Source: Bacillota bacterium (GTDB taxonomy: Bacteria; Bacillota; Clostridia; Christensenellales; CAG-138). Taken from it: a stretch of 47,714 bases of DNA. The position numbers were made by a program, and so were the translations under genes. This document shows positions 1-41,642 of the stretch, piece after piece (position 1 is the first letter of the stretch; every line of letters begins with the position of its first letter). The stretch lies in NCBI GenBank assembly GCA_023458615.1, contig JAEWYV010000053.1, forward strand, positions 1 through 47,714, in the 5' to 3' direction. The notes beneath the pieces are model-generated. The model had not been told where the DNA came from. It worked only from the letters and a program-made list of their open reading frames with translations, and did not search any database.

Positions 1-112
1 AACAGCCGGACTGAGAAGTACCCTTGGAACCTGTTGGGTCATGCCATCGAAGGAAAGTGATACATATCGCAGCTTCTTTTTGATGGTCGTCTCACTGGCG
101 ACTATTTTTTTG
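1..112 (+). promoter_or_regulatory. TPP (THI-box) riboswitch, 5' part cut by window edge, with intrinsic-terminator expression platform
   Basis: CTGAGA at 11-16, ACCCTTGGAACCTG and GGGTCATGCCATCGAAGGAA match the conserved TPP aptamer core. Hairpin 83-89/99-105 followed by T-run 105-111. Lies directly upstream of a ThiT-like gene. Confidence 0.75.
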
Positions 113-134
113 TGGAAAAAGGAGAAAACAAAAC

Positions 135-818
135 ATGGAATTCAAACTGTTCAGTAAACTTGCCTCGCTCGAAGGAATCGAGCTGACTATGCTCCTCGGC
201 GCATTGGTGGTTCTCGGCCTGCTTATCTGGGCGGTTGCGGCCTATGCCAAGCGCGCAAAGACGCAGGCGGCGGCAGCTCCCGAGACGGCTACCTCCAAGC
301 CCAGCCGCACGCAGACGCTGGTCTACGGCGCGCTCTCCATCACGCTTGCGTTTGTGCTGAGTTACTTCAAGCTCTTTTCTCTTCCGCTCGGCGGAACGAT
401 TACGTTGCTCTCCATGCTACCCATCTTCGCCTATGCAGCCTATTTCGGCCCGCTCTATGGCTATACGGCGGCGTTTGCGTTCTCGCTTTTGCAGGTGGTG
501 CAGGGGGCATACATCGTACACCCCGTGCAGTTCATTTTGGATTACTTCGTGGCGTTTACGCTGCTCGGCACGGCGGCGTTCTTCCCGAAAAATCTGCCTG
601 TCGGCGCCGCTATCGCGGGATTTCTGCGTATGATTGCGAGCACGGTTTCCGGTGCGATCTTCTTTCAGGATGTGGGTATGGAGTATGGCTTTGCCAATCC
701 GTGGGTCTATTCATTCATCTATAACTTCCTCACAATCGGCGTGGATACAATTCTCTGTGTCGTCGTCGCCGCCCTGCCGCCGGTGCAGCGGCTTTTTAAG
801 AGAGTGTTTATCAAGTAG
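135..818 (+). CDS. thiT: Thiamine ECF-transporter S component (ThiT-like) integral membrane protein
   Basis: 227-aa polytopic hydrophobic protein; GGAG SD at 121-124. Resembles ThiT by eye (LPxGGxITL...LDYxVAFxxLG pattern) and is controlled by the TPP riboswitch. Confidence 0.7.
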   Translation: MEFKLFSKLASLEGIELTMLLGALVVLGLLIWAVAAYAKRAKTQAAAAPETATSKPSRTQTLVYGALSITLAFVLSYFKLFSLPLGGTITLLSMLPIFAYAAYFGPLYGYTAAFAFSLLQVVQGAYIVHPVQFILDYFVAFTLLGTAAFFPKNLPVGAAIAGFLRMIASTVSGAIFFQDVGMEYGFANPWVYSFIYNFLTIGVDTILCVVVAALPPVQRLFKRVFIK

Positions 819-860
819 GAATGTGTTTCAAGAACGATTGATTTAAATTGTAGCAACAAA

Positions 861-893
861 GACCCCGCAGTCTATGCTGCGGGGTCTTGTTCT
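861..893 (+). terminator. Rho-independent terminator after thiT
   Basis: Perfect 10-bp stem GACCCCGCAG/CTGCGGGGTC (861-870/877-886), 6-nt loop, then TTGTTCTG. Confidence 0.8.
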
Positions 894-1078
894 GCAAAAA
901 GAGCTACAGAGTGGGTATCATACATCTTTGACAAATACGAAATATGCTATTTTAATCAAAAAGTGCGTATAATAGAGAAATACATCGGCTTACACGCAGG
1001 ATATGGCGACCGAAGCGCGGAACGACCGGATGGGGATGTTTCTGCACGGAGGTATCTTGGTAGATGAAGGGAACATAG

Positions 1079-2704
1079 ATGAGCACCGCAAAGAAACGAT
1101 TGCTGCTGGCAGATGCCGCCGTCATCCCAATGATCCCGCTTCTGTTTCTATTCAATCAAAATGCAAAATTTCTTCGCTTCTCGCAGGTGGCAATTGTTTG
1201 CCTCTGCCTTGGGGCTATATCCATCGGGCTTTTTTTGCTCTATCGTTTTATTTTTCAATCCAGCACGGTGTCGTTCATCGCGATTCTATTTCAAACCATC
1301 GCTTTATATGCCGTAAACGGGATTTATTCGTCACTCAAACCGGAATTAGCCTGGCTTATCTTTCTGCTGCCAATTCCGATCGGCTTTATTGTAGGTTATT
1401 TGTGTCGAAGGTGGTTCAAGCAAAAAGAGCAGGAGATGCTTCCCTTGCTGGCGAGTGTGTTTCTGGCGGTCATGCTGGCGCTGAATTTGCTTCCGCTGCT
1501 GAAGAACATGAACAGTGCCGATTCGGCAGGTGCTGTGAAATATAAGCAGAACTTTACGGTGAATGCCGCTGCCCCTGCACCCAATGTGTATTGGTTTCTT
1601 TGCGACGGTATGCTTGGTTTTGATGCGATGGAGCAATACTTCGGGGACAAGCAAGATGGATTGACGCAGGAATTACAAGAGCGCGGATTTGACATTGACC
1701 GCAGTGCAGCGTTTGAAGCGGGGCACTGGACGCGGATCGCCCTGCCCGCGCTCATGTGCCCGGATTATTATGACACGTATTTAGGCCAAATTCTGAAGGA
1801 TCACGAGAAGGCAAACGCATTGCGGGAGAAGACGGGAACCGGATTGGATAATGCGCGCGTCTATAATGAAACGATCAATGCATTTCAAGCAAGGGGATAT
1901 ACCACCGCGACAATCTCCATCGACGGGCCATACTTTTATCCGACTACAGATTACTTCTATTATATTGATGCGAGGTTTCGCTCGCCAAAGGACTATGTCT
2001 CCGTCCCGCAGCTTGTGCATAATCTCAAGAGTGGTGAGGCGACCTATGATGAATCCAGCCTATATGCCCATCAGCTGGGAGAGATATTTTTAGGCGGTAT
2101 TCCGGGAATCGCATACGACAAGCTCTTTCCCAACAGCGACATTGTAGAGGAGAAGCTTCAAACAGAGTTCTCAAGCGCCGGGGAGGTGCTGTTGAATAGT
2201 CCATCCGGCAAGATCAATACTGCGCTGGTGACCAGCCTGTATGATGCGATCCATTCGCCGGCGCTTGACGCGCCAAAGTTCGTTATTGTGCATAGTTTTC
2301 TCGCGCATTATCCGTTTGATCAGGATGAAAACGGCAACCCGCAAGCAAATTATTCCAGCATCCTGTCCTATCCAGGGCAGCATGCCTATGCGGGAAAGGT
2401 GCTGATTCATATGATCGATCTGATTCTGGAAGCCGATCCCGACGCCGTGATTGTCTTGCAGGCGGATCATGGGCTGCATATGTACACGGCGGAGCAGATT
2501 GAGCGTGTGCTGGGGGCCGGTTCGGCAACGAATATTTGGAACAGTGTGTTTTCCGCCATTCGTGTTCCGGCGCAATATCAAACCAGCGACGAACAATATG
2601 CGCTTGCCAACCCGTTGAACATCTCGCGCTATATCGTTAACCGCTTTGTCGGGGAGAATTATTCGTATTTGACCGATTTGGGGTTGGTGGAGGGAGCGGA
2701 TTGA
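1079..2704 (+). CDS. Membrane-anchored sulfatase/alkaline-phosphatase superfamily protein (LtaS/EptA-like)
   Basis: About 150 aa of N-terminal hydrophobic helices, then a soluble domain with VYWFLCDGM and VLQADHGLH motifs typical of sulfatase-type metal sites. Start codon choice is uncertain. Confidence 0.55.
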   Translation: MSTAKKRLLLADAAVIPMIPLLFLFNQNAKFLRFSQVAIVCLCLGAISIGLFLLYRFIFQSSTVSFIAILFQTIALYAVNGIYSSLKPELAWLIFLLPIPIGFIVGYLCRRWFKQKEQEMLPLLASVFLAVMLALNLLPLLKNMNSADSAGAVKYKQNFTVNAAAPAPNVYWFLCDGMLGFDAMEQYFGDKQDGLTQELQERGFDIDRSAAFEAGHWTRIALPALMCPDYYDTYLGQILKDHEKANALREKTGTGLDNARVYNETINAFQARGYTTATISIDGPYFYPTTDYFYYIDARFRSPKDYVSVPQLVHNLKSGEATYDESSLYAHQLGEIFLGGIPGIAYDKLFPNSDIVEEKLQTEFSSAGEVLLNSPSGKINTALVTSLYDAIHSPALDAPKFVIVHSFLAHYPFDQDENGNPQANYSSILSYPGQHAYAGKVLIHMIDLILEADPDAVIVLQADHGLHMYTAEQIERVLGAGSATNIWNSVFSAIRVPAQYQTSDEQYALANPLNISRYIVNRFVGENYSYLTDLGLVEGAD

Positions 2705-2807
2705 GGGCTGACCGTGTGGGCTGAATCCATAGAATCCTGTAGGATTGCTCTTATACTGGATTTCTAATTACAAAAAGTTCTCATTCGTTTTTGGTTAATT
2801 GCAACCG

Positions 2808-2834
2808 AAAAAAGACTCCACCGGGTCTTTTTTT
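2808..2834. terminator. A/T-flanked hairpin, possible bidirectional terminator
   Basis: AAAAAAGAC (2808-2816) pairs with GTCTTTTTT (2825-2833). The stem is GC-poor, so this is only moderately convincing. Confidence 0.4.
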
Positions 2835-2942
2835 CGTGGCAAAGAACGGTAATTTTAATAGAAATGCACCCCCTTGGGTTGAACTGAACTGAACCCCGAC
2901 GATTATACACAAATAAAGCCCCTATCGAAGGAATACTAAGAA

Positions 2943-3035
2943 TTAGATGAACTGACGTCGTTTTTCAAGTGGCGTTAGTTTTGTTTTGAGCTGAATCCAC
3001 TCATGGTTGTAGGAAAATATAAAGTTACCCTTGAG
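2943..3035 (-). pseudogene. C-terminal relic of an IS3/rve-type DDE transposase
   Basis: The last ~29 codons of the minus ORF read FSYNHEWIQLKTKLTPLEKRRQFI*, resembling the YNxxRxxxxLxxxTPxE tail of IS3-family transposases. No catalytic domain lies upstream. Confidence 0.35.
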
Positions 3036-3100
3036 CTTATTAAAAAGCAGGCATTTAGTGCATAAATGAACTGCATATCGGGCTTGCCAGGAATGGCATG

Positions 3101-3682
3101 TTAGAAAAACAAGGATACGGCGCAATACACAAGCAACAACGCCATGATGATATTGACGGGTTTACGATACCGCTGAAATAGTTTTTCGAAAACCGCCCCG
3201 AATATCGCCCAGCAGAGGCACCCCGAAGTGCCGATAACGGTCAATAGTAGCGCATATAAAAGGATATCGGTCATACTATGGTAGTAAGGGAGTATATAGG
3301 AGGACATCGCCGTTATCCCATAGAGGATGATCTTCACGTTCACAAACTGCAACAGCATCCCGGAGAGAAACGAGTTGCCTTGCGTGATGCCTGCTTTGCC
3401 TTCATGCGGGCGGTCGCGTAGAACCGTCCATGCCAAATATAGGATGTAACCCGCGCCAAGAATGACCATATAGGGCTTAATTGCGGGAATCAGATCAAAC
3501 AACAGAGACGAAAAGATGGCGCAGGCGCTCATAACGACGACAAAGCCGGTAAAGATACCAAAGAAAAATGGGATGGATCGCTTGAACCCATCGCGGCTTG
3601 CGTTTGTCATGGAGAGTAGATTGTTTGGCCCTGGCGTATACGCTGTGAGAATGGTATACGATAAAAACGCGGGAAAATTCAT
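3101..3682 (-). CDS. LysE/RhtB-family amino-acid exporter
   Basis: 193 aa with about 6 TM segments and an N-terminal signature FLSYTILTAYTPGPNNL typical of the LysE family. Divergent from a LysR regulator. Confidence 0.8.
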   Translation of the reverse strand: MNFPAFLSYTILTAYTPGPNNLLSMTNASRDGFKRSIPFFFGIFTGFVVVMSACAIFSSLLFDLIPAIKPYMVILGAGYILYLAWTVLRDRPHEGKAGITQGNSFLSGMLLQFVNVKIILYGITAMSSYILPYYHSMTDILLYALLLTVIGTSGCLCWAIFGAVFEKLFQRYRKPVNIIMALLLVYCAVSLFF

Positions 3683-3831
3683 GAAGCCTCCTGTTTATCA
3701 CGAACAATCGCAAAAGTGTGATTGCCAAGATTGTTTATGCATGCTATCATACCAGCAGCAAAAGATTCAAACAAGTTGAAATAATAGAATGAATAGTTCA
3801 ACAGAAATGAATTAATAGGAGAAATGCTGGG

Positions 3832-4716
3832 ATGGAACTAAAATACCTGAATACGTTCATGACGATCATCGAAGAAGGCAGTTTTGTGAAAGCCGCTGAG
3901 AAACTCGGGTATACGCAATCTACCATTACGTTCCAGATCGGACAGCTCGAACAGGAATTCTCCGTGCAATTATTTGAAAAGATCGGCCGGCGCATGGTGT
4001 TGACGAAAGCCGGAGAGCAAATCATGCCCTATATCACAGAGGTGCTGAACTCTGTTCGGAAGATGAAGTATTTTGAAAAGGATCTATCTTCCTGCGAGGG
4101 GGATTTGACGGTGGGCGTTGCGGAAACGCAGCTCTGCTTTTCGCTACCGGATAGACTAAAGAGATTTCATCAGGCAGCACCAAACGCGCGATTATTCCTC
4201 AAATCGATGAACTGCTATGATATCCGGGATGCGCTCATGAGCGGTTCACTGGATGTCGGCATCTTTTACAACGACGTCGGCGGATATGGTTCGAACCTGA
4301 TCGTACAGGAAATGGAAAGCAGCGAAATCGTGGTGGTCGCGTCGCCGGGCACGCAAAGACGCTTTCCAGATCTGATCACCCCTGATCAGAAGCTTTCTGC
4401 AACGTATTTGATCAATGAGCAGGACTGTATTTTCCGGCAGAAGTTTGAGCAATACCTCAACGAAAAGAGCATTACGCTAGATCACACCATCGAGCTTTGG
4501 AGCATACCAACGATCATCAATCTGGTAAAAAACGATGTTGGGATATCGTCTCTGCCCAGATTTACGGTGCAGGAAGAATTATCGCGCGGGGGACTGGTAG
4601 AGATCTCCACAGATATGAAAAATTCGCAGATAACGGCTGTATGCGCGTACCACAAGAACAAATGGGTGAGTCCATTGATGGAATTGTTTATCCAAATGTG
4701 TGTAGAACCGAGATAA
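3832..4716 (+). CDS. LysR-family transcriptional regulator
   Basis: N-terminal wHTH FVKAAEKLGYTQSTITFQIGQLEQEF, ~294 aa, classic divergent arrangement with the exporter. Confidence 0.85.
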   Translation: MELKYLNTFMTIIEEGSFVKAAEKLGYTQSTITFQIGQLEQEFSVQLFEKIGRRMVLTKAGEQIMPYITEVLNSVRKMKYFEKDLSSCEGDLTVGVAETQLCFSLPDRLKRFHQAAPNARLFLKSMNCYDIRDALMSGSLDVGIFYNDVGGYGSNLIVQEMESSEIVVVASPGTQRRFPDLITPDQKLSATYLINEQDCIFRQKFEQYLNEKSITLDHTIELWSIPTIINLVKNDVGISSLPRFTVQEELSRGGLVEISTDMKNSQITAVCAYHKNKWVSPLMELFIQMCVEPR

Positions 4717-4790: not shown

Positions 4791-5363
4791 TTGGCATCCG
4801 ACTTCGGACTAAAGATTGGGATCGAGGGCGAAAAAGAGTTCAAGAAAGCCCTCTCGGAGATCAAAGAGTCTGCCGTTCAAGCTGATGACGCTGGTGGGCG
4901 GTTCGACAAGCTGGGTTTGGTTGTAAAGGGCATCGGTGTCGCGCTCGGCGCGGCCATGGCGGCGATCGGTACGGCTACGATTGTGGCGGGCAAAGCGCTC
5001 GTCGATATGACGTTCAACACTGCGGCATATGCGGATGAAATGCTGACGCAGAGTTCCATCACCGGCATGAGCGTGGAACGGTTGCAAGCGTATTCGTATG
5101 CCGCCGATCTCGTGGATGTGTCTTTGGAAACCCTCACCGGCTCTATGGCGAAGAACGTGAAATCCATGTCCAACGACGCCGGTGGGAGTGCGAAGTTTGC
5201 CGAGGCATACGACAGCTTCGGAGTGTCAGTGACGAATGCGTATGCTGGAAGTCTTGATGGAATGACAAGCTATAACCGCCAAGGCTCAGACCGAGCGCTG
5301 CGGTGCGAATTCGATCACCATCCAGATGCTTTAGCTATGATAAGGAATGCAAACAACACTTGA
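4791..5363 (+). pseudogene. Truncated phage tail tape-measure protein (N-terminal relic)
   Basis: TTG start behind AAGGGGG. The N-terminal ~150 aa parallel the resident prophage TMP by eye (IGIEGEKEFKKALSEIK vs ISVKGDKEYSSALKGIK; GIGVALGAAMAAIG...AGKALVDMT...ADEML vs GIGIAIGAVAVAAV...AGKAIFDLT...ADELL). The reading frame then degenerates. No other tail genes are nearby. Confidence 0.65.
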
Positions 5364-5786
5364 AACATTCATAGCGTTTTGCATCGGTCTGATACTTCCG
5401 ACGACGACGAGCTACGACCTCGTCGGTAAGTCCAGGTTCTCCTTTATTGTAAACGAGAAGCACGTGGCTTACCGCTTTTCACGGGTCGGTTACTACAACC
5501 ACACGATTCCTGAGTGCAATGAACTCATGATTAGGCTGGGTGTTGTTCCGATAAGGGGTTCCAGACTACTCTTCAACGATACCCTATAAATCCAACGATT
5601 GCCCATTACTTCAACGATAGCTTTGAGTAGGCATCACAAAAAGCACTCGAAATTATAACCTACAGCCCCGAAGAATCTCCGTTACGGTAAGCTTTATACC
5701 GCAAACAGCAAAAAAGCGCCCGATTTATAGGATTTTTTGGCAAAGAAAAAGAACGATAACTTTCTATCAAAATTACCGTTCTTTTT

Positions 5787-5833
5787 TGGTAGCGGCGATC
5801 TGATTCGAACAGATGACACTCCGGGTATGAACC
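5787..5833. repeat. att core, distal copy (orphan 3' tRNA-Met fragment)
   Basis: TGGTAGCGGCGATCTGATTCGAACAGATGACACTCCGGGTATGAACC is identical to 46678-46724. The flanks diverge immediately on both sides. Confidence 0.85.
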
Positions 5834-5941
5834 ATACACGGTTTGCCGAAAACAATGCTCGGAGAACCGCGGAAAACGCACTAATTATGCGGGATTCTCG
5901 GGGTAGATAGGGTTTACTTGGCAGGTGGATTTCTGCGAAGT

Positions 5942-5961
5942 GGCAAGAAATTGGCAAGAAA
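5942..5961 (+). repeat. Two tandem GGCAAGAAA repeats (putative integrase arm-type sites)
   Basis: GGCAAGAAAttGGCAAGAAA; the same 20-mer recurs at 46580-46599 near the other end of the element. Confidence 0.5.
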
Positions 5962-6202
5962 AATTTTGAATGATCCTAAAGACCTAATTATATATTGGGA
6001 AAGAAAAATAAGGGGGAAACGAAAATATTAATCCCCGCACGAAAAGATATACTCTATTGTATGGACGGATATGATTGAAATATATTAATGAATACAACAA
6101 TATAGAAATGCTTTTCTTCAGAAGGATTTTCTGATCACTTGAGAAGAAGCATTATTGAAAGGTCAGATCGACAGTTATAAATCACGAATTGAAATAGCAG
6201 AA

Positions 6203-6481
6203 CTAGATTACTTGCCGTTCTTCTAATGCTAAGTTAATACCTGAATCTGTTAAATTGTTATTTGATCTTTGCTTGAAATCTAAAACGGCTTGAATAACGG
6301 ATAAATTAGAGCTGTTTAAACAAAAAGTATGCAATTCCCATTCTGATAACTCCGCTAATCCCATAATGAGTTCTCTGTAGCGATCCTTCGATGATTGTGA
6401 TATTCTTGCCTCTTGCATATTCTTCATCTCCACATTTCTTATATTTAATATATTAAGCGGTATGGTTGATTTCCTTAACAT
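6203..6481 (-). CDS. Small hypothetical protein, last gene of the minus-strand island operon
   Basis: 92-aa ORF overlapping the upstream gene by 29 nt. An alternative ATG (MQEARI...) lies 9 nt behind a GGAG. No recognisable motif. Confidence 0.45.
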   Translation of the reverse strand: MLRKSTIPLNILNIRNVEMKNMQEARISQSSKDRYRELIMGLAELSEWELHTFCLNSSNLSVIQAVLDFKQRSNNNLTDSGINLALEERQVI

Positions 6482-8039
6482 TACTCATAAAAAAAGCAGC
6501 ATCCACGCTCTCTTGTTTGAGATACAAGAATGTGGCAACTTCACACCGTAGTCGAGCTTTGCTCCTAACAAAAGGTATAATATAATCATTGCTTTTTCTA
6601 ATTATATCACGACCGGTACTAAGTTTCATTGAAAACAAATCGTAAAATCTTCTAGGACCTACTCCTGCGAATTGCTCAAATACTACCTTTAAATCATGTT
6701 CTTCATCCTCATCTTCGCCAATTGAAACTGCGTCTTTATGTAAATTGGCAGCTTTGCTTTTAAGGTAAGGTTCGATAAATACCAACCGTTTTATGCCAGC
6801 AAAAATTGCGTGACGTGCACAGTTATGGCATGGAAATGTTGTGCAATAAAGTGTTGAATCTTTCAATGACACACCTATGCGACCACAAGTCAACATGGCA
6901 GCCATCTCAGCATGAACAGCTCGACTGAACTCAGTTAAATCTTTTAGTGGTGATTGCAATAGTTGCTGTTTTAAAATATTCTTATATTCCTCCAAAGTCA
7001 TTCCTTTGTAAACATTAGAATCAAAACTGCCATAGTCGAAACTATTAACGATTTCATTAATGATAGTATCGATTTCGTGTTTGTTTGGGTCAAATCCTAA
7101 CGTATAATCACGGCTATCAGGTTTGTCATATCCTTTACGATTATCACAATATTCGACAAGATCTGTTCCTGGCCAATATTGGCCGCCTCCTGGGGCTGGT
7201 ACATCATTTGCTCCTGTCGATATGATATCACAACCATTTGCAATCACGGCGCCAACTTGGCGAGATAAATCAGCAGACCGTAATGACGAAGAATAAGCCA
7301 TAAACATTGCATACTCATCAAAAGTTGGGGTGATATAGGGGTTGCCAAAAAGCAAGTCAAGGATACGGGTTAGTTGCTTACTAATTATCGGTTGCTTATC
7401 TTTTTTTAAAATTTCCCGAGTTATATTTTTATATTTCTTTTTTTTATCTTTCCATCCTTTAAACGATAGATGAAAATCTGCGAGCTGAAAAACCCTCTTT
7501 GTATGTTGCCCATAATCTAAGCTTTCTTCTGCATCACGTTCAATCAGTCTCTCAGTCTCTTCACAATTTATGATTTTGACTTTCTCCAAATAATCCTTTC
7601 GATCATCGTCCGATTCATTGATAGCAAACAAGTAAAAGGTTGAAGTGTAGATTTCTTTAAGCTTATTAACCTCATCTTCGTGCTTTAGGGAGTCAATAAT
7701 ATATGCTACGCCTTTACTAGCATCCATTTTGCAACGGTTACTAATAACCTGTTCGGCCACACCTTGTGCCAAAATCGCGGTGCTGTATTTTCTACGCAAC
7801 TCATTCCCTGCATTCATGAGCTGCCGAGTACTAAGGTATTTATCAGCACTGAGTGGTTCAGTAAGAGTAGGTTCTAATAAATCCTTTGAAATCTTAATTA
7901 CACAAGTCTCGTAATTGAATTCTTTTAATTGATTTGACAACTCATCGATGATAATCGAATTGTCAGTCCCTACGGCACAAGCTAAAGCGATAACAATTTC
8001 TGAGAAAGCAAGATTTTTGTTTGAAATACTGTTAAGCAT
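6453..8039 (-). CDS. AvcD/Dcd-like defensive deoxycytidylate/dCTP deaminase (P-loop kinase-like N-half plus zinc deaminase C-half)
   Basis: 528 aa. C-terminal VHAEMAA...TTFPCHNCARH is the cytidine/dCMP deaminase zinc motif. The N-half has a degenerate P-loop (ALACAVGTD) and a dNMP-kinase-like IIDSLKHEDEVNKLKEIY segment. GAGGTGA SD. Confidence 0.65.
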   Translation of the reverse strand: MLNSISNKNLAFSEIVIALACAVGTDNSIIIDELSNQLKEFNYETCVIKISKDLLEPTLTEPLSADKYLSTRQLMNAGNELRRKYSTAILAQGVAEQVISNRCKMDASKGVAYIIDSLKHEDEVNKLKEIYTSTFYLFAINESDDDRKDYLEKVKIINCEETERLIERDAEESLDYGQHTKRVFQLADFHLSFKGWKDKKKKYKNITREILKKDKQPIISKQLTRILDLLFGNPYITPTFDEYAMFMAYSSSLRSADLSRQVGAVIANGCDIISTGANDVPAPGGGQYWPGTDLVEYCDNRKGYDKPDSRDYTLGFDPNKHEIDTIINEIVNSFDYGSFDSNVYKGMTLEEYKNILKQQLLQSPLKDLTEFSRAVHAEMAAMLTCGRIGVSLKDSTLYCTTFPCHNCARHAIFAGIKRLVFIEPYLKSKAANLHKDAVSIGEDEDEEHDLKVVFEQFAGVGPRRFYDLFSMKLSTGRDIIRKSNDYIIPFVRSKARLRCEVATFLYLKQESVDAAFFMSNVKEINHTA

Positions 8040-8062
8040 CTAATTCACCTCATACCGTATAA

Positions 8063-9850
8063 TTAAATTGGGGGTGGCAGAACGTTTACAAAACTGCTAG
8101 ATTCGCTTAGTAGATCTTCGGAAGGGCTATCGCTGGTGAACATCTCAAGAGCAAATTTGCAATTAAGGTATAGCTGAGATAGATATGCATACTTCCTCGC
8201 AGTAATATCAGGACTGAATTTGCTCTTGGAATGTGCCGCGTTAATTCTGTTATCAAACTCGATTTTAAGAGTTTTTTCTGCTGATAGCTTTAGTGATTCG
8301 ATACATGACACGATTCTCTTATTGCTTATTCGAGTTAGCGAATCTTTATCAATAGTCCATAGGTTACTCTTCTCCTCATCATCAAAACTTCCGATTCCAA
8401 CTTCATCGAAGAGGATTTCTACTTGTTTATCTCCTAATACTAAAAAACCATTATTGCCGTATGGTTGCTCCCCTCTTGACAAATTCTTCACTTCGAGAAA
8501 AATCAGAACACCATTTACATTTAGTAAGTTGCGTATTAATTTGAATGTATTTTCCCAATCTTCTAAAGGGATTTCATGTAACACATTCATGAGGATTACA
8601 ACGTCAAATTTTCCATAATATTTAGTAAGTTTCGATTCTTCAGTGACCAACATAATTTTTGAATCATACTGGTATTTGCGGTCAGGTTTGGGTTCATAAG
8701 CAAAATAGTTTAACTGCAAGTTGCCATTTGAGTTTTCGTATTCGCTTTTGAATGAATCCCATATCCGGCATTTTCCGGCTCCAAAGTCGAGCACTTCTAA
8801 AGGTCTATCTTTTTGTATGTCTCTTAGTTTTGTTATTGTTCTGACAAACTGTTCGTTATTGGAATTCGTGTGTTCAATAACATCTGGCGAGTAAAAACAC
8901 TCTAATATAAACTTATAGAACTGCCAGCTTTCTATTGATTTTAGAAACTCAAATACATCGATATTTTCAAGACCAACTAAACAATTAAAAGCGTTTTTAT
9001 AAATACTACTGTTACGTCGTAAAACACGGCTATTTTCAACTAAAACAATGCTTTCGAAATCAAATAAAGGTACAAGGAATAAAGAGTGTGTAGCTACCCA
9101 AACTTCACTAATACTCTCGGATTCTAACAGCAGATTCATGAGAAAAATTTGCTTTTGAGGATGGAGATGTTGTTCGGGCTCATCGATAATTACAACCAGC
9201 TTTTTATTAGAAGTAGTTTCAATAAAAAATAAAAAGAGCGTAAAATAGAACAACATCAATTCCCCAGGTGAAATCTCTGTCGCCATAAACGCATCTTCCA
9301 AAGTGCAAGTATGCACTACTTCATTATTAAAATATTTATTTACAATGATTTCGTTTTTGTCTTCTTCGAATCTTCGATTCACTAGCTCTTGAAATATTTT
9401 ATTAAATTTATCAAGTGCTGCATATGCTTTCTTTCTTTCCGCGGGAGCTTTAATTTTTGCCAACCCAAAGAAGCCTTTTATGAAATTACAGCGATCTTCA
9501 GCCTGCTCAACGACCTTTAAAAAATCACAGTAGTTTATATCGATATTTCCGTGCAGCAAATCAAAGACATAAGGATTTTTTTCTTGTTCTAAGTCTACAT
9601 CATTATCCACGATTGTGTGTTCAAAAATGTGTGGTGATATCTCTGGAAAATAAAGAGTTACTGTGACAGGATCATCTTTACTCCGTTGCGTTTTTAAATC
9701 TTCAATGGCTTTAAGGAACCTAGTTTTCCCTGCGCCATTTTCGCCAATGACTAAATTCACATCAGAATAACTGATTTCGTCAGCATTCATAATGTGATGA
9801 GCTAGAAATGTTTTTTGATCGTTTTTTGAAAAATTGACCAACTTTCTCAT
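8063..9850 (-). CDS. ABC/OLD-type ATPase fused to a class-I SAM-dependent methyltransferase-like domain
   Basis: Walker A GENGAGKT, SPGE, Walker B VVIIDEPEQHLHP, ATHS. C-half has VLDFGAGKC (motif I), FDVVILMNVLHEIP and NGVLIFLE. Confidence 0.6.
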   Translation of the reverse strand: MRKLVNFSKNDQKTFLAHHIMNADEISYSDVNLVIGENGAGKTRFLKAIEDLKTQRSKDDPVTVTLYFPEISPHIFEHTIVDNDVDLEQEKNPYVFDLLHGNIDINYCDFLKVVEQAEDRCNFIKGFFGLAKIKAPAERKKAYAALDKFNKIFQELVNRRFEEDKNEIIVNKYFNNEVVHTCTLEDAFMATEISPGELMLFYFTLFLFFIETTSNKKLVVIIDEPEQHLHPQKQIFLMNLLLESESISEVWVATHSLFLVPLFDFESIVLVENSRVLRRNSSIYKNAFNCLVGLENIDVFEFLKSIESWQFYKFILECFYSPDVIEHTNSNNEQFVRTITKLRDIQKDRPLEVLDFGAGKCRIWDSFKSEYENSNGNLQLNYFAYEPKPDRKYQYDSKIMLVTEESKLTKYYGKFDVVILMNVLHEIPLEDWENTFKLIRNLLNVNGVLIFLEVKNLSRGEQPYGNNGFLVLGDKQVEILFDEVGIGSFDDEEKSNLWTIDKDSLTRISNKRIVSCIESLKLSAEKTLKIEFDNRINAAHSKSKFSPDITARKYAYLSQLYLNCKFALEMFTSDSPSEDLLSESSSFVNVLPPPI

Positions 9851-9874
9851 ATACAGCCCCGAAGTGTTTGATTA

Positions 9875-9903
9875 AATATATAATAGTATCTAGAAAAACA
9901 CAA
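9875..9903 (-). promoter_or_regulatory. Putative sigma-70 promoter for the minus-strand island operon
   Basis: On the minus strand: TTGTGT, 17 nt, TATATT, about 25 nt upstream of the ATG at 9850. Confidence 0.35.
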
Positions 9904-9969
9904 TCTTTTTTTCTTTCTCCTGTAAGTTACTGGTGTGGCTAAGTAATGACGATTTAAAAAGCGGAAAAT

Positions 9970-9999
9970 TTGCAGTAATATCGATCTTTGTGTTATAAT
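9970..9999 (+). promoter_or_regulatory. Putative extended -10 promoter for the plus-strand island operon
   Basis: TTGCAG (9970-9975), 18 nt, TGtTATAAT (9991-9999); AGGAGG SD at 10013-10018. Confidence 0.5.
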
Positions 10000-10023
10000 A
10001 TACTATTAAATTAGGAGGCGTTT

Positions 10024-10542
10024 ATGTTTATAAAAGCTTCTTCAGAATGCGAAGCGATAGAAAGAATTAAAGATGAAAAAGCGAATATTTCGCAGGGTGA
10101 AACTTTTTATATAGAAATTCAAAAGACGGCAAGCAGAGACACTCATGTGGAACCAAATAAACAATTTTACATGCCGATAATCGACAACGGGATAAAAATA
10201 AATCAAGATATAGTTTTTTGTAGTGGCAAAAGTATTTCTATTTTTCATGAGTTTTCAACAATATTCAATAATATTGATAATATGCCACAAAGTATCGGGC
10301 CATGTACAAAAAATGTTAATGATAATAAAGAATTGACCAGCTATTACATTTCGGTTCAGAGAAAAGAGGATTTGTTAATATTAACATTGAATCTGCATCG
10401 AATTGAAGTTGAGCATTTGCCCAATATTATTCATCAATGGGATCAGCTATGTTCAAGGCTTGTAAAGCATGTGAAATATAAGAACAAAGTGAAGCTTTGT
10501 ATCATAGGAAAAACAGGTGGGGAGAAGCTTGAGTTATTTTGA
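10024..10542 (+). CDS. Hypothetical protein (first gene of five-gene operon)
   Basis: 172 aa, strong SD, AT-rich codon usage consistent with neighbours. No motif recognised. Confidence 0.6.
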   Translation: MFIKASSECEAIERIKDEKANISQGETFYIEIQKTASRDTHVEPNKQFYMPIIDNGIKINQDIVFCSGKSISIFHEFSTIFNNIDNMPQSIGPCTKNVNDNKELTSYYISVQRKEDLLILTLNLHRIEVEHLPNIIHQWDQLCSRLVKHVKYKNKVKLCIIGKTGGEKLELF

Positions 10543-10978
10543 ATTATTACACACAGAAGCCATGAAGAGCGGATGTATGCTCCGAAAATATGCAGCTCTC
10601 GTTGAAAAAAATGGAGAAGTAGTCGGTCTCGGACACGCAACGGTTCCAAACGGGATGCCTTGTGAAGAACTGGGCTTTTGCACCCGCGAGTTAGCGCAAA
10701 AAGAAGTTGACAATAATGCCGAATGTTTCGAACATTGCAGAGTGGTTCACGCAGAAGTGTGTGCCATTCTCCAAGCTGAAAGAAATCTACTTCCAGGAGC
10801 CACGTTACATTTATTAGGAATTTGTTCAGAAAACAGGCAGATATACTCAGGAGCGTTTCCATGCGCATTATGTTTAAACATTATTGAATATGTTGGAATT
10901 AGTAGAATTTGCGTCTTTAGTGCTAGAAACGAACTAACAACTTTCATATTCAAGGAGGGCGTTTGGAATGCTTTGTAA
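10517..10978 (+). CDS. ComEB/dCMP-deaminase-family zinc deaminase
   Basis: GTG start behind AGGAAAA. VVHAEVCAI...GAFPCALCLNII catalytic zinc motif, plus upstream Cys-rich segment (CEELGFCTRE...CFEHC) as in dCMP deaminases. Confidence 0.7.
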   Translation: MGRSLSYFELLHTEAMKSGCMLRKYAALVEKNGEVVGLGHATVPNGMPCEELGFCTRELAQKEVDNNAECFEHCRVVHAEVCAILQAERNLLPGATLHLLGICSENRQIYSGAFPCALCLNIIEYVGISRICVFSARNELTTFIFKEGVWNAL

Positions 10979-11813
10979 ATCAGAAATCAAGGCTATTATT
11001 GAAAAGGGAGCAGTTGTCCCAAAGCCTAATGATGACACTTGGAATAATCCTGCAAAAATCGATCTTCGATTGGGAGAACTATGCTATGTTAGTAGCGATC
11101 CGGATAATATTATAGAACTGGCAAAAGACAGCGATTCTATAATTCTTCCTCCAAATGAAGTTCTGCTATTTCAATCACTCGAGAAATTCAACTTGCCAGG
11201 TAATATCGTTGCACATATGGGCCTTCGAATGAAATACATTTCAAAAGGTCTACTTATGCCAAATGCAACTCATATTGACCCAGGTTATAAAAATTATATA
11301 TTCGGACTTATTTATAATTTATCGAATCAAAATGTCCATATATTTTACAAGGAAGCTATAGCAACTATCGAGTTCGAAGAGATTAAGTTTTCGGGACTAG
11401 AATGCTCGCTTTACGAAGGTTCCATGCAGGAAACAAACTTTAAAACCTTTGTGCAAAATAGAGTAAAAAGTTCATTAGGAATGCTTCAAAAAAGGACAAG
11501 AAAAGCGGTTAGGAATTCAGAAAGGTCATTAAGGATCGGTGGTATCGTGCTTGCTTCAATCTCAGCGGTTATAACTGCAGTCACGCTAGTAATAGCGATA
11601 CCATCAATTTTGGGAATCACAAATTACCAGGATATTGAATACGAGTGTCAAGAGAATGTTCAAAAAATAGAAGAGCTTACAGCAAGGATAGATTCTCTTG
11701 AAAAACAGGTTAAGTATTATGAGAATAACACAATTGAAACTCAAATTGATCCCAATGCGTCGGATTCCGTCGATCAAGGGCTTACTCCAGGAGGATCCGT
11801 AGATGGCCAGTAA
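10968..11813 (+). CDS. dCTP-deaminase/dUTPase-fold protein with C-terminal TM helix and coiled coil
   Basis: AAGGAGGG SD. KIDLRLG...LPPNEVLLFQSLEKFNLP...THIDPGYKNYIFGLIYN aligns by eye with Dcd. GIVLASISAVITAVTLVIAIPSILGI is a TM segment, followed by heptad-like IEELTARIDSLEKQVKYYE. Confidence 0.6.
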   Translation: MLCKSEIKAIIEKGAVVPKPNDDTWNNPAKIDLRLGELCYVSSDPDNIIELAKDSDSIILPPNEVLLFQSLEKFNLPGNIVAHMGLRMKYISKGLLMPNATHIDPGYKNYIFGLIYNLSNQNVHIFYKEAIATIEFEEIKFSGLECSLYEGSMQETNFKTFVQNRVKSSLGMLQKRTRKAVRNSERSLRIGGIVLASISAVITAVTLVIAIPSILGITNYQDIEYECQENVQKIEELTARIDSLEKQVKYYENNTIETQIDPNASDSVDQGLTPGGSVDGQ

Positions 11814-13098
11814 AGAGGTCTCTCTTTTATATTATAATGGAACTGATGCAGCGCATTTTGGTAATTCGAGAAAAGAGTTCCCCCCGATCGGATTACTTTA
11901 CCTCGCAAGTTCTCTTGAAGCTCGAGGCTATTCGGTTGCATTATATGATATTCAGATGATGAGTCCAGATCACTTGAAAAAGATTAGCAATACTGTAATA
12001 GGATTAAGCATAAACGCTAGTTATGTCGTACCATACTTCGTTGATATTATAGAAAAGTTACCCAAAGCAAGGCTAATCATAGGAGGAGGGCAGCATGTTT
12101 CTGCTTCTCCAAGAGAGAGTATAGATCAATTCAGGCTTGATTTTGCGTTTATTGGTGAGAGCGAACATACTCTTCCAGACTTCTTAGATAACTATTTAAT
12201 TAGCAACATTGGATATGAAAATATTCCCGGTATCGCATACATAAAAAATAGAGAATACAAATATACTGGATTAGCTAGTCGGGAAAAATGCTTAGACGAT
12301 CTTCCATTTCCCGCCCGACATTTACTTCCAGAGCAAGATATACTGCTTGATAAACGAATATGGGGCAAGGATATAAAAAGCGTTTCCATGATTACATCTC
12401 GGGGGTGTGTATACAATTGTAATTTTTGCGGGAACCTTTATAAATCATTTTATCATCGTTCTGCACAAAATATTGAAAACGAGATAATCCATATCGAACA
12501 ACAATATCCCGAGGCAAAGGGTATAGTTTTCTTGGATGAAAATTTGTTGTTTTGTGAAGATCATATACTCGATTTATGTAATATAATGAAGAACCATAAT
12601 TTCCTGTGGACAGCGAATGCACGCGTTGATTATATGAATGAGACTGTAGGACAAGCTATGTATTCTTCAGGCTGTGTTGAAATTAAATATGGGGTTGAGA
12701 GCGGAAGTCAGAGAATTCTGAATCGCATGAATAAAAAAATCACCTTGCGTCAAGTGGAAACTGCATTAAAGTGCTCGGCAGAAGTTGGAATATATAATAA
12801 ATGCTTCCTCTTATATGGTTATCCTGGTGATAATATGGAGAGTTCTAATGAAACGATTGCGTTTCTTCAACGAAATCGGAGATATATTAATAGAGTAAAT
12901 TTATTTGATTATACTCCATTGCCAACATCTAGAGATTACCATACATTATTGCATAAAAATTCATATCAATGGGGAGATTTCAGGATATATCGGCAGCACC
13001 AACACTGGTGGGGTTCGGATAGTGAGTACGAAGAAATGTTAAAAGGTTATTTTAATTTAAAAGAATATATCGATAAAAATTTTACAGAAGAAGTGTGA
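11803..13098 (+). CDS. Radical SAM enzyme with B12-binding-like N-terminal domain
   Basis: AGGAGGA SD. CVYNCNFCG (CxxxCxxC). N-terminal PPIGLLYLASSLEARGYSVALYD resembles the cobalamin-binding domain of class-B radical SAM enzymes. Confidence 0.7.
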   Translation: MASKEVSLLYYNGTDAAHFGNSRKEFPPIGLLYLASSLEARGYSVALYDIQMMSPDHLKKISNTVIGLSINASYVVPYFVDIIEKLPKARLIIGGGQHVSASPRESIDQFRLDFAFIGESEHTLPDFLDNYLISNIGYENIPGIAYIKNREYKYTGLASREKCLDDLPFPARHLLPEQDILLDKRIWGKDIKSVSMITSRGCVYNCNFCGNLYKSFYHRSAQNIENEIIHIEQQYPEAKGIVFLDENLLFCEDHILDLCNIMKNHNFLWTANARVDYMNETVGQAMYSSGCVEIKYGVESGSQRILNRMNKKITLRQVETALKCSAEVGIYNKCFLLYGYPGDNMESSNETIAFLQRNRRYINRVNLFDYTPLPTSRDYHTLLHKNSYQWGDFRIYRQHQHWWGSDSEYEEMLKGYFNLKEYIDKNFTEEV

Positions 13099-13103
13099 AG
13101 TAG

Positions 13104-13712
13104 ATGGAAGAAGTCATGGTAATCAATATGCAAACCTTTATGAGTCTAGTTGATGATGGACTAGAAACAAATAGTGTGTACATTGACAAAAACAAGAAAC
13201 TTCTAGATAGAATTTTAGATACACACGAATATATACCCCGAAGCGTTGCCGAACAACAAAGTAATTATAAGCAAATAATACCTTATGCGGTTTTAAGCTA
13301 CCAGGATTATTTTTTTTGCCTAACTAGATTAAAAGCTCAAACAGAAACTAGACTTCATGGGAAACTATCCATTGGTGTTGGTGGCCATATCAACCCTATC
13401 GAAGAGGAGCATCCAGAACCCGTTCTAGCAGGTCTATATAGGGAGTTGTTTGAAGAAGTCGATATTTTTACAGATTATAGCCTGAAGTATATTGGTGTTA
13501 TTTATGAAGAAAGCAGTGAAGTAAGCTGTTTTCATCTTGGTCTTTTGTTTGTATTAAACGTTGATTTTCCACGCGTTATCGTAAGAGAACACGAAAAAAT
13601 GACAGGCGATTGGGTGTCGCTGGAAAAATTAAGGACCGCTTTAAATATTGAGACTTGGTCATCGTTGATTATTCAGAATTGGAACAATATTCAAAATACA
13701 ATCGAGATATAG
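13104..13712 (+). CDS. Nudix-like hydrolase
   Basis: GGHINPIEEEHPEPVLAGLYRELFEEVDI contains E-x7-RE-x2-EE-x-(D)-I, a Nudix-box variant with an insertion after the first Gly. The start codon could lie a few codons downstream. Confidence 0.5.
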   Translation: MEEVMVINMQTFMSLVDDGLETNSVYIDKNKKLLDRILDTHEYIPRSVAEQQSNYKQIIPYAVLSYQDYFFCLTRLKAQTETRLHGKLSIGVGGHINPIEEEHPEPVLAGLYRELFEEVDIFTDYSLKYIGVIYEESSEVSCFHLGLLFVLNVDFPRVIVREHEKMTGDWVSLEKLRTALNIETWSSLIIQNWNNIQNTIEI

Positions 13713-13813
13713 GCTTTGTGTAGATTCACTGTATAATCTATAAAAGAAATACGAATTCTTTGCTTCTCCAGATTTCTATCTAGTTCTGATGTAGATTACA
13801 CGATTCTTAAGCG

Positions 13814-14110
13814 CTATTTGTATGTTAAACTCTCCCTCATCTTTCCCCACAAATCATGCACAAAACTCGGTCCTCTACCCAACGCAACACCGGTGAGCGC
13901 ATAGAGTACATACAGCAGAACAGGTTCCGTGATCTCCACCATCCCCGCAAGGAAGTTGATCTTCGCTACCACGGCGATCACAACGCCAATCCCCATACTC
14001 ACGATCTCCGCAACGGTGATCTTGCCCGCGGTCTTGTCCCAGAGGGGTTTCAGCGTCTGTACGATCGCCTCCACAAAGAGCGCTAAGATAATCAAATTTG
14101 CCAAATCCAT
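13814..14110 (-). CDS. Holin-like small membrane protein
   Basis: 98 aa with three hydrophobic segments and a charged C-terminus; last gene of the lysis cassette. Confidence 0.55.
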   Translation of the reverse strand: MDLANLIILALFVEAIVQTLKPLWDKTAGKITVAEIVSMGIGVVIAVVAKINFLAGMVEITEPVLLYVLYALTGVALGRGPSFVHDLWGKMRESLTYK

Positions 14111-14126
14111 TTCATTCTCCTTTCAT

Positions 14127-14390
14127 TTATCCCACAGCATCATCGCTGTTGATTCCTGTTGTGCTGCCCTGTCCGGTGAACGGGTTCACTCTGCCGAGGA
14201 GCAGCTTGCCTGTTTTAAGGCCGGAGCAGATAAAGATTTCCGATCCCCAGAAGCCGTACCAGAGGCGGGAATACTCCGTGTCGATCCAGAAGTCATACTT
14301 CACCCGCAGCCAAAACAGCACCGCAGTATACGCCGTGATCGCCACCATGGACAGGCAGATGAACTTCGTCAGCGTCGGTATCTTCGCCAT
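14127..14390 (-). CDS. Small membrane protein of lysis cassette (function unknown)
   Basis: 87 aa, N-terminal TM FICLSMVAITAYTAVLFWL, immediately downstream of the endolysin. Confidence 0.45.
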   Translation of the reverse strand: MAKIPTLTKFICLSMVAITAYTAVLFWLRVKYDFWIDTEYSRLWYGFWGSEIFICSGLKTGKLLLGRVNPFTGQGSTTGINSDDAVG

Positions 14391-31739: not shown

Positions 31740-32513
31740 ATGAAACACATCAATCATCTAATTAGAACTATTCTAGTAAGTGCGATTACATTTAGTTTTT
31801 TTCTTTCCCTCGCATGTGCGCCAGGAAGTATGACTGCAAGCGCAACAACGCCGGAACCAACGTCGACGGCGACAGCAACACCCACACCAGAGCCGACGCC
31901 AACGCCAACGCCAGCTGCAACACCAACACCTACTCCCATGCCTGAGTTGACTTATGAGCAAAAAAAGGCATTGTTAGGAATAAACGATGATATGACGCCT
32001 CAAATTGTAGGAACTCTTTACTGTTATAATATAACCTTTAACAATGAAAGTGGAAGAATATGGTGTGTTTCATATACGAATGAAAACGATCCAAATAAGT
32101 ATGAAATGTATAGTGTTTGTAATAGAGAATATTTATTCACACTCCAGCTTCCAGCAGGTGCTACTGGAATATTTGAATATTCGAAATATCTATTCGAATC
32201 AAGTAAGAATCTAAGAAATCTGGTATTGGTAAATTCAACCGCCATAGCTGATATGGCATCGACTTATGATATCTGGAACATTGATTATAATAACAATGGA
32301 TTTTTAAAGAATTTACAGGAGAAAACTAACCAAGACTGGGAAGCAGTTCTATATACACTTCTTTCAAAAGAGCAAATTGTCGACTTGATTATTGATTCTA
32401 CACCGCAAGATGAAATCATACCATTTTGGGTGTATACCCCCGGAGCACAAATTCCAGAAGAGTTAAAAGGAATCTACAGTGAAGAAGATTATCCACCTGC
32501 ACCAGCAGAGTAA
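31740..32513 (+). CDS. Secreted/lipoprotein-like moron protein with Thr/Pro-rich linker
   Basis: Signal-like N-terminus ending ...LSLAC, then TPEPTSTATATPTPEPTPTPTPAATPTPTP. AT-rich body, opposite orientation to the phage genes. Confidence 0.6.
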   Translation: MKHINHLIRTILVSAITFSFFLSLACAPGSMTASATTPEPTSTATATPTPEPTPTPTPAATPTPTPMPELTYEQKKALLGINDDMTPQIVGTLYCYNITFNNESGRIWCVSYTNENDPNKYEMYSVCNREYLFTLQLPAGATGIFEYSKYLFESSKNLRNLVLVNSTAIADMASTYDIWNIDYNNNGFLKNLQEKTNQDWEAVLYTLLSKEQIVDLIIDSTPQDEIIPFWVYTPGAQIPEELKGIYSEEDYPPAPAE

Positions 32514-32577
32514 CGGAAGGTATAGATAACTTAAAGCGATAAATCATCTTACTATAATCTTGCTTATAGGAGGAACC

Positions 32578-40340: not shown

Positions 40341-40400
40341 GGGATTGTTCTGTTGCCTGCGGGTGGAGGTTTGGGAAAGCGGTGGAGCGGTTGGGGGTGA

Positions 40401-41639: not shown

Positions 41640-41642
41640 AAG

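Follow-up and report, generated by a model that had tools for sequence, protein, structure and literature searches.

A rare gene cassette at a prophage end, combining a small deaminase, a membrane-anchored Dcd-fold protein and a B12-domain radical SAM enzyme, is a candidate anti-phage system

We analysed a 47,714-nucleotide stretch of DNA (the window), which comprises positions 1 to 47,714 of contig JAEWYV010000053.1 from assembly GCA_023458615.1 of a Bacillota bacterium (Clostridia; Christensenellales; CAG-138). Within the window, five open reading frames (ORFs), all on the plus strand and spanning 10024-13712, are cargo at the lysis-module end of a prophage-like region. Of these, four are conserved, rare and low in GC content, and the cassette that they make up is real, previously unannotated and set in a defence island. 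On the strength of the sequence comparisons described below, we tentatively favour, at slightly less than an even chance, the reading that the locus is a horizontally mobile conflict cassette, most likely anti-phage, that acts on the deoxypyrimidine nucleotide pool. Its likely logic resembles that of the nucleotide-depleting and nucleotide-modifying defences.

Conservation, distribution and neighbours of the cassette

The conserved unit consists of a small deaminase (ORF2 in the window), a Dcd-fold protein with a transmembrane (TM) helix (ORF3) and a radical S-adenosylmethionine (SAM) enzyme with a B12-binding-type domain (ORF4). These three genes occur in the same order at about ten independent loci, namely the window, L005, L006/L007, L024, L008-10, L013/L018 (Draconibacterium), L015 (Herbinix), L017 (Peptostreptococcaceae), L026 and L027. 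The ORF4 homologues of the ortholog tier are 40-50% identical to ORF4, and the deaminase and the Dcd-fold TM protein precede them in every readable context of that tier, as they also do at L013/L018, where the radical SAM enzyme is 36% identical. A gene like ORF5 follows the core at all of the listed loci except the mouse-gut L008-10 and L026. At L005, L013, L017 and L027 there is a papain-like fifth gene of ~180 amino acids (aa), with an invariant Cys and a Gly-His motif, that weakly resembles the papain-fold protein Alr0975 (E 0.024) and that the cassette of the window does not contain. An earlier, sequence-only reading of this DNA had proposed a five-gene unit; as a conserved entity that unit does not stand, since ORF1 is an orphan and the papain-like gene is found elsewhere and missing here. 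That the genes form a real unit is borne out by the co-occurrence of the core in unrelated genomes.

Records that name a host give Herbinix, Clostridiales, Peptostreptococcaceae and Draconibacterium, which belong to the Firmicutes and the Bacteroidota. The cassette is rare and patchy, with 4 loci in 185,579 GTDB species genomes (one per species) and 6 in metagenome contigs of the Joint Genome Institute, and in nearly every locus its GC content lies below that of the flanks. As the sequence-only reading had supposed, the combination matches no named defence system or pathway: no system-level match in PADLOC v2 and no NCBIfam equivalog claims it, PADLOC gives zero hits for ORF1, ORF3 and ORF5, and no paper describing the cassette was found in the freely readable literature (newer DefenseFinder models were outside the comparison). 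Each of the folds involved has housekeeping members (Dcd, Dut, ComEB and MutT), so that the genes might be thought to serve pyrimidine salvage or house-cleaning and to be clustered by chance. We consider this very improbable, given that so few species genomes carry the cassette, that all curated equivalog cut-offs are missed widely, and that the locus combines a membrane-anchored Dcd fold lacking the catalytic Glu with foreign GC content and mobile-element contexts.

In the window, the cassette has two defence-type neighbours, both divergent from the operon. The first is an AvcD-type anti-phage dCTP deaminase (6453..8039, minus strand; 528 aa) that matches the PADLOC dCTPase model over its full length (E 1.5e-150) and contains the Pfam domain dCMP_cyt_deam_1 (4.5e-16). 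The second (8063..9850, minus strand; 595 aa) joins an AAA_21/AAA_15 ATPase, which resembles AriA, PtuA and GajA (1e-16 to 1e-13), to a class I SAM methyltransferase domain. The occurrence of both genes in the same island argues that the immediate neighbourhood of the cassette is defence cargo, and the prophage-end setting that had been suggested for it holds, with a defence-rich island at the lysis end that adjoins the AvcD-type gene. (Note that the ATPase-methyltransferase fusion is without a counterpart in all other cassette loci, that no nuclease partner of it is visible, and that its architecture is unusual for its ATPase class; it could be a separate candidate defence gene. A 92-aa ORF at 6203-6481 overlaps the 3' end of the AvcD-type gene.)

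Comparable company is found at other loci. L013/L018 is flanked by a type IIG restriction-modification (RM) system, an SMC-like ATPase, a Cas3/PbeA-like helicase and an integrase, and L005 by an integrase, a transposase, PemK and a recombinase. L006 adjoins a C5 DNA methylase and a radical SAM/DUF4130 pair, and L028, a sister cassette considered below, lies between an McrBC-like module (PDC-M26A, 1e-36) and PDC-M11A (2.5e-222)/ASCH.

The link of the window's cassette to a prophage raises the possibility that the genes serve the metabolism of a phage or another element, either by reshaping the nucleotide pool for a modified base (hypermodification, anti-restriction) or by supplying dTTP, as the dCTPase/dCMP-deaminase module of T4 does. 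Enzymes of the dCTPase/dUTPase fold, dCMP deaminases and Nudix proteins of the COG4112 family are indeed typical of phage modules (PHROG), and relatives of ORF5 are present in 48 phage records, where they are common in Staphylococcus and Bacillus phages. However, no relative of ORF4 was found in IMG/VR (2.9 M contigs) or in 50,697 GenBank phages, and IMG/VR contains no Dcd-fold TM protein, only short 157-aa Dcd-like genes without a TM helix. Moreover, a DNA-level search of phage records with the cassette returned no similar DNA, and most cassette loci are chromosomal and outside prophages. Within the window itself, the cassette runs opposite to the phage late genes and lies 20 GC points under the prophage. 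Nor do Pfam and NCBIfam reveal in the cassette a thymidylate-synthase-like hydroxymethylase, a nucleotide kinase, a DNA transferase or a polymerase; the hydroxymethylase, the nucleotide/5-hydroxymethyldeoxyuridine DNA kinase and the DNA transferases of the phage thymidine and cytosine hypermodification pathways are found neither among ORF1-5 nor among conserved neighbours. We therefore regard a role in the service of a phage or element as rather improbable.

The conserved proteins and the orphan leader

ORF2 (10517-10978, plus strand; 153 aa, GTG start) is a small zinc deaminase of the cytidine deaminase (CDA) fold and of the dCMP-deaminase type (Pfam dCMP_cyt_deam_1, 1.3e-9). Its catalytic residues H78-A79-E80 (10748-10756, plus strand) and P115-C116-x2-C119 (10859-10873, plus strand) are invariant in an alignment of 10 loci, as are four further cysteines, C20, C49, C55 and C74, which probably form a second metal site. 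To judge by these residues, ORF2 is a CDA-fold deaminase of the dCMP/dCTP-deaminase type with its catalytic residues intact, and the zinc fold and Cys cluster that the sequence-only reading had recognised from HAE and PCALC are confirmed. Its label of 'ComEB-type' is not, because ORF2 scores better against the NCBIfam antiphage_deaminase model than against ComEB (9.1e-10 vs 9.3e-4), while missing every curated cut-off widely; the match to antiphage_deaminase reaches 38 bits against a cut-off of 400 bits and covers positions 327-383 of 437. The PADLOC dCTPase model is likewise matched in its deaminase region alone (1.8e-9, profile positions 354-483 of 630).

ORF2 thus shares with AvcD (PADLOC dCTPase, NCBIfam NF041025) the CDA-fold core with HAE and PCxxC, a true member of that family lies 2.5 kb away in the same island, and the dCTP loss proposed below would be common to both. 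It differs from AvcD in that it is without the N-terminal nucleotide-binding or kinase-like domain and matches the family neither over its full length nor above the cut-off. Furthermore, AvcD is a single-gene system, whereas ORF2 is always accompanied by the Dcd-fold membrane protein and the radical SAM enzyme.

ORF3 (10968-11813, plus strand; 281 aa) has an N-terminal Dcd/dUTPase-fold domain (~residues 1-165, 10968-11462; DCD PF22769, 1.2e-15), a single, strongly hydrophobic TM helix (~residues 190-216, 11535-11615) and a C-terminal coiled coil (~residues 220-254, 11625-11729; DivIC-like, 8.7e-4), and this architecture is the same in all homologues. The sequence flanking the helix carries a charge of +6 on its N-terminal side and -5 on its C-terminal side, from which an N-in/C-out orientation is predicted, with the enzyme-like domain in the cytoplasm and the coiled coil outside. 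Against the Dcd model TIGR02274 the protein scores 62.3 bits, with a cut-off of 92.8 bits. In all members of the Dcd-fold TM family the column of the catalytic Glu of Dcd, which we take to be E138 in E. coli numbering, holds Leu or Met (FG[L/M][I/L]YN), whereas true Dcd proteins (4xjc, 2qxx, the Dcd of L001 and the DcdB of L028) have T-L-E there; the Ser/Arg motif is altered as well. The loss of this Glu argues that ORF3 is not a Dcd-type deaminase. Thus the fold, the TM helix and the coiled coil that had been read from the translation all stand, and the protein is to be seen as dUTPase-like, the deaminase Glu being gone.

The closest relatives of the N-terminal domain in the PDB, found with a family profile at 1e-22, are 8y1w and 9ln0 (155-156 aa, deposited as dCTP deaminase); 2yzj, which is named a dUTPase, is also among the best. 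All three have a non-acidic residue in the Dcd Glu column, as ORF3 does, and these Dcd-like dUTPases share with ORF3 an Asp-Pro-Gly-aromatic motif, a Ser/Thr-Leu-Lys/Arg motif and a Tyr-x-Gly arm. They are soluble proteins of 155-170 aa, whereas ORF3 adds a linker, the TM helix, the coiled coil and a place in a four-gene cassette. (Dcd-like dUTPases of such size occur in Thermococcales and Sulfolobales.) Within the ORF3 family, D104-P-G-Y107 is kept (with Glu in P0002) and matches the Asp of dUTPase motif III and the sugar-screening aromatic residue; Y149-x-G151 of the arm is kept too, and the canonical motif V of dUTPases is not recognisable. From these motifs, a 2'-deoxypyrimidine triphosphate is the most likely ligand of ORF3 and probably also its substrate for hydrolysis, which would make ORF3 a dNTP pyrophosphatase rather than a deaminase.

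Proteins like ORF3 also occur with other partners. At L001 (767-5487), the Dcd-fold TM gene is accompanied by a fusion of a radical SAM enzyme with a DegT aminotransferase, an AIRS/PurM-like enzyme and a canonical Dcd, and the lead gene, which has no family match, reads as NusG-like by inspection of its sequence. L022 (9959-13730) has a class I SAM methyltransferase and a 726-aa protein that ends in a CDA deaminase domain. The sister cassette L028 (Paenibacillus woosongensis CP126084, 3440-7170), without a radical SAM enzyme, encodes a 259-aa TM protein, an 84-aa protein judged MazG-like by inspection, a shorter Dcd-fold TM protein and a Glu-containing Dcd, followed by a COG4112 Nudix protein (an ORF5 homologue of 39% identity) and then the papain-like gene. 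On a Rhizobium leguminosarum plasmid (NZ_CP007047; L032, 5497-6648) the Glu-less Dcd fold has a C-terminal TM helix; a 137-aa protein of all-helical appearance is encoded upstream, and a uracil-DNA glycosylase, a C1 peptidase and a helix-turn-helix (HTH)/ImmA-IrrE pair adjoin. At L001, L022 and L028, the variant is in each case accompanied by a cytosine deaminase, whose fold may be either of the two; this points to conversion of a dC to a dU nucleotide as the common chemistry. On the Rhizobium plasmid, no such partner was identified.

This recurrence of the membrane protein among differing enzymes (L001, L022, L028 and L032) would also fit a system of abortive infection, in which the Glu-less Dcd fold of ORF3 serves as a nucleotide sensor, a ligand-bound membrane trimer disrupts the membrane, and the deaminase, the radical SAM enzyme and the Nudix protein make or remove a modified nucleotide ligand. 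TM effectors are frequent in nucleotide-signalling defences such as CBASS and Pycsar. Such a division of labour would account for a protein that has lost the deaminase catalytic residues and keeps nucleotide-binding motifs, and whose TM helix and coiled coil are kept in every homologue. Nevertheless, a lone TM helix whose coiled coil is acidic and faces outward makes no obvious pore former, the retained dUTPase-type Asp/Glu-x-x-Tyr fits catalysis, and no sensor or cyclase-type signal generator is present. On balance, signalling to a membrane effector seems unlikely.

ORF4 (11803-13098, plus strand) is a radical SAM enzyme of 431 aa. Its B12-binding-type Rossmann domain (residues 21-127, 11863-12183; PF02310, 1.4e-12, 47.9 bits with a cut-off of 32.1) is followed by a radical SAM core (residues 196-355; PF04055, 6.5e-15, 56.1 bits) in which the three cysteines of C202-x3-C206-x2-C209 (12406-12429, plus strand) are invariant in the family. 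This is the layout of class B, or cobalamin-dependent, radical SAM enzymes, and the sequence-only reading, which had seen CVYNCNFCG after a B12-binding-like N-terminal domain, proved correct. No NCBIfam equivalog is matched at its cut-off, the best being ApyD, PhpK and the MJ_0865 type. The sole PADLOC match is to PDC-M51A (2.4e-8), over the generic radical SAM core.

With the family profile, the best solved relatives are 9ccb (1.9e-26), identified via the literature as QCMT/MgmA, then AprD4 (3.5e-25), OxsB (6e-19) and TokK (5.9e-11). We take these four to be two methylases, one dehydratase and one ring-contracting enzyme that acts on deoxyadenosine phosphates, AprD4 presumably being the non-methylating dehydratase. 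Because the solved relatives span such different reactions, the chemistry of ORF4 is not readable from homology. QCMT/MgmA, a B12-dependent radical SAM glutamine C-methyltransferase, is the nearest of the solved structures and has the same two-domain layout; however, it modifies a protein in methanogens, whereas ORF4 scores 83 bits against the TIGR04014 cut-off of 360 and partners nucleotide enzymes. (The idea that ORF4 might be a folate-independent thymidylate synthase was set aside as chemically unnecessary and as a misfit with the mobile, sporadic distribution.)

Distant relatives of ORF4 (31-32% identity) also keep the company of nucleotide enzymes. In Frankia (P0074) such a relative is fused to a cytidylate-kinase-like domain; in Burkholderia stagnalis (L011, 5125-9605) one adjoins genes for a thymidylate-kinase-like protein and an AlkZ-like DNA glycosylase; and in Pseudofrankia (L035, 6242-9915) one lies by cytidylate-kinase-like, AlkZ-like and MazG genes, with a pPIWI-RE nuclease and a transposase near. 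These neighbours support a nucleotide substrate for the ORF4 clade, and the clusters of kinase, radical SAM, AlkZ-like and MazG genes may be a separate nucleotide-modifying conflict system. Of note, nucleotide company is not universal, as one Clostridial relative stands alone among sporulation genes.

The prokaryotic viperins (pVips) are also radical SAM enzymes in defence-type settings, and a modified pyrimidine nucleotide is a possible common logic. Some pVips are paired or fused with genes like those of nucleoside monophosphate (NMP) kinases, and the distant ORF4 relatives are likewise paired or fused with NMP-kinase-like genes. ORF4 differs in its N-terminal B12-binding-type domain, which places it in the structural class of OxsB, TokK and QCMT, and no PADLOC viperin model matches it at E <= 1.

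OxsB brings in a further possibility, that the cassette makes a small molecule, a modified pyrimidine nucleoside or nucleotide comparable with oxetanocin A, with the deaminase serving for tailoring or self-resistance. OxsB, which acts in oxetanocin A biosynthesis, is a B12-domain radical SAM enzyme that works on a deoxynucleotide together with a phosphohydrolase, and it ranks high among the solved structures related to the ORF4 family. The likeness is remote, at 1.4e-5 for the single sequence and reaching its 6e-19 with the profile, and OxsB has 744 aa, extra domains and a purine substrate; its partner OxsA is an HD-domain protein and not a Nudix, Dcd-fold or deaminase protein, and an HD-domain gene is absent from every cassette locus. 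A biosynthetic role would be in keeping with the radical SAM-aminotransferase fusion, the AIRS/PurM-like enzyme and the NusG-like lead gene (by inspection) at L001, with the SurE nucleotidase and the isochorismatase-family hydrolase that are encoded after the cassette at L006 and L024, and with the AlkZ-like glycosylases beside distant ORF4 relatives. (AlkZ-like glycosylases are self-resistance genes in natural-product clusters.) It is at odds with a cassette of only 3-5 genes that has no exporter, no regulator and no OxsA-like partner, with the settings in a prophage island by AvcD and in islands rich in RM systems and integrases, and with the very sparse, patchy spread and low GC content that are typical of defence cargo. 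We find biosynthesis of this kind a doubtful explanation.

ORF5 (13104-13712, plus strand; 202 aa, or 198 aa in the public gene call, which starts at 13116) belongs to the COG4112 family, in which 447 homologues were collected, some of them named 'predicted NUDIX family phosphoesterase'. It matches TM1382 (PDB 3e57) at 4.6e-18 and phrog_8902 at 1e-35; 3e57 is listed in the Nudix homology clan without an assigned function (PMC5389931). The [R/K]E114-L-x-E117-E118 part of its Nudix box (13440-13460, plus strand) is invariant in the family alignment, as is G93-G94-H95-x-N97-P98. The box is non-canonical, with a spacing from the conserved Gly that is ~5 residues longer and an upstream Glu that is not conserved, and the score against Pfam NUDIX (15.5 bits) falls under the 21.1-bit cut-off. 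Of the Nudix-like box described in the sequence-only reading, the RELFEE part is thus borne out by conservation and the upstream Glu is not. On these alignments we assign ORF5 to the Nudix clan, with its putative catalytic glutamates conserved.

ORF1 (10024-10542, plus strand; 172 aa), which is preceded by a strong Shine-Dalgarno (SD) sequence (AGGAGG, 10013-10018), is not part of the conserved cassette. It has no family in Pfam, NCBIfam, PADLOC or PHROG, and an exhaustive, filter-only HMMER search of 1.84 billion representative proteins recovered ORF1 itself and no credible relative, in agreement with the sequence-only reading, which had recognised nothing in it. (A match to a 3082-aa cadherin/FG-GAP-like protein was judged spurious, being inflated by repeats, and with an hhalign probability of 0.1, profile comparison showed ORF1 to be unrelated to the papain-like gene seen elsewhere.) ORF1 may be a lineage-specific add-on, possibly a regulator or sensor.

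How the cassette may act

If the cassette does act against phages through the deoxypyrimidine pool, its enzymes could be ordered as follows. ORF2 would deaminate a deoxycytidine nucleotide to its uracil form. ORF3, as a membrane-tethered trimer with the dUTPase-type Asp-x-x-Tyr, would hydrolyse dUTP and/or dCTP to the monophosphate and pyrophosphate. Together the two would drain dCTP to dUMP irreversibly and without a flood of dUTP. ORF4 would carry out a radical reaction, a methylation or a rearrangement, on a pyrimidine nucleotide, and this step would either make the drain irreversible or give an analogue that poisons replication. ORF5 might hydrolyse a (modified) nucleoside di- or triphosphate, as a step of the pathway or for self-protection.

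Several points count against an anti-phage drain of this kind. A radical SAM enzyme is unnecessary for the simple depletion of dCTP, and the membrane anchoring and the outward coiled coil of ORF3 are unexplained by a model in which the pool is drained. There are no defence neighbours at L008-10, L015 or L022; L008-10 lies between an ABC transporter and an HTH-MazE/hydrolase pair, and L015 by ABC transporters and purA. The evidence from defence neighbours is qualitative and uncorrected for background, and the SurE and isochorismatase-family genes that follow the cassette at L006 and L024 could mean metabolism. The relatives of ORF5 in lytic phages presumably serve phage nucleotide metabolism. 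Finally, the AlphaFold2 models were too poor to help: that of ORF3 (from a 3-sequence alignment) has a mean predicted confidence (pLDDT) of 49.5, too low for a comparison of folds, and that of ORF1 (from its single sequence) has a pLDDT of 48, too low for use.

The radical SAM enzyme, superfluous for depletion, could instead stand at the centre of the system. The B12-domain enzyme might be the core of an unrecognised antiviral nucleotide factory in which it replaces viperin, a proposal that we hold to be possible, if on the unlikely side. A membrane-tethered, dUTPase-like trimer and the small deaminase would then channel dCTP into a uracil or cytosine deoxynucleotide, from which the radical SAM enzyme would make a polymerase-poisoning analogue (for example by C-methylation or by rearrangement of the sugar), and the Nudix protein would limit self-toxicity. 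The clusters of kinase, radical SAM, AlkZ-like and MazG genes known from Burkholderia and Frankia would then represent a further branch built on this principle.

Layout of the locus, its surroundings and its significance

The ORFs of the cassette are tightly packed, with overlaps of 26, 11 and 11 nucleotides (nt) and then a 5-nt gap before ORF5. These coordinates, the strands, the overlaps and the gap are all as the sequence-only reading gave them, and every motif that it named was found in the translations. The strong SD sequences that it placed before 10024, 10968 and 11803 are present and of the AGGAGG type (ORF1, ORF3 and ORF4), and those of ORF2 and ORF5 are weak. Upstream of ORF1, on the plus strand, direct reading reveals a promoter-like site (9970..9999), with TTGCAG at 9970-9975, a spacer of 18 nt and an extended -10 element, TGtTATAAT (TG at 9991-9992, TATAAT at 9994-9999). 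The letters and the spacing of this element had thus been correctly described; the -35 hexamer matches the consensus at 3 of 6 positions, and a consensus scan hence did not list it. Since, in addition, promoter-like matches in the AT-rich stretch are not above chance (20, as compared to 14.9 +/- 4.1 in shuffles), a promoter at 9970-9999 is plausible without being statistically supported. No intrinsic terminator was found 3' of ORF5, and an Rfam scan of 5300-14200 returned no riboswitch and no RNA.

The cassette (36% GC) belongs to an AT-rich island ~8 kb long, at roughly 6000-13800, which sits at the lysis-module end of the prophage-like region and abuts phage DNA of 57% GC to its right. Ordinary cellular genes, including those for a thiamine transporter, LysE and LysR (Pfam), occupy 1-4716. 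The phage genes start at 13814 and are transcribed leftward, beginning with a holin-like ORF, an endolysin (ELLD and SH3, 8.8e-46) and structural genes. At the other side are an integrase (36582-37664), a type I RM system and a tRNA-Met gene (46678-46754), and no att-like direct repeats longer than 14 nt were found between the island and the integrase end. The type I RM system consists of hsdM (37715-39325), hsdS (40401-41639) and hsdR (43447-46479), interrupted by a RhuM-family gene, a gene for a 201-aa protein without assignment and one for a PIN_12 protein; together with the integrase it makes a second defence cluster (36582-46754) at the opposite end of the prophage-like region. A second AT-rich patch (31740-33330, plus strand; 37% GC), with two ORFs of ~256 aa that have no Pfam family, adjoins a ParB_N-N6/N4 DNA methyltransferase (30306-31475, minus strand). 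(Note that a 190-aa ORF at 4791-5363, on the plus strand, has no Pfam match; by inspection, its N-terminus resembles the beginning of a tail tape measure protein, and the ORF may have been left behind by an older prophage that occupied this site.)

Should the cassette prove antiviral, it would add a new enzyme class, the cobalamin-type radical SAM enzymes, and an architecture, the membrane-anchored dUTPase fold, to a field of nucleotide-based immunity that so far consists of AvcD and other dCTP deaminases, dGTPases and viperins. A new natural nucleotide analogue might also come to light, which would interest antiviral chemists as ddhCTP and oxetanocin did. Without an antiviral role, two findings would remain as unannotated biology and as targets for enzymology: a family of Glu-less, Dcd-fold membrane proteins paired with cytosine deaminases, and a clade of B12-domain radical SAM enzymes set among nucleotide enzymes.

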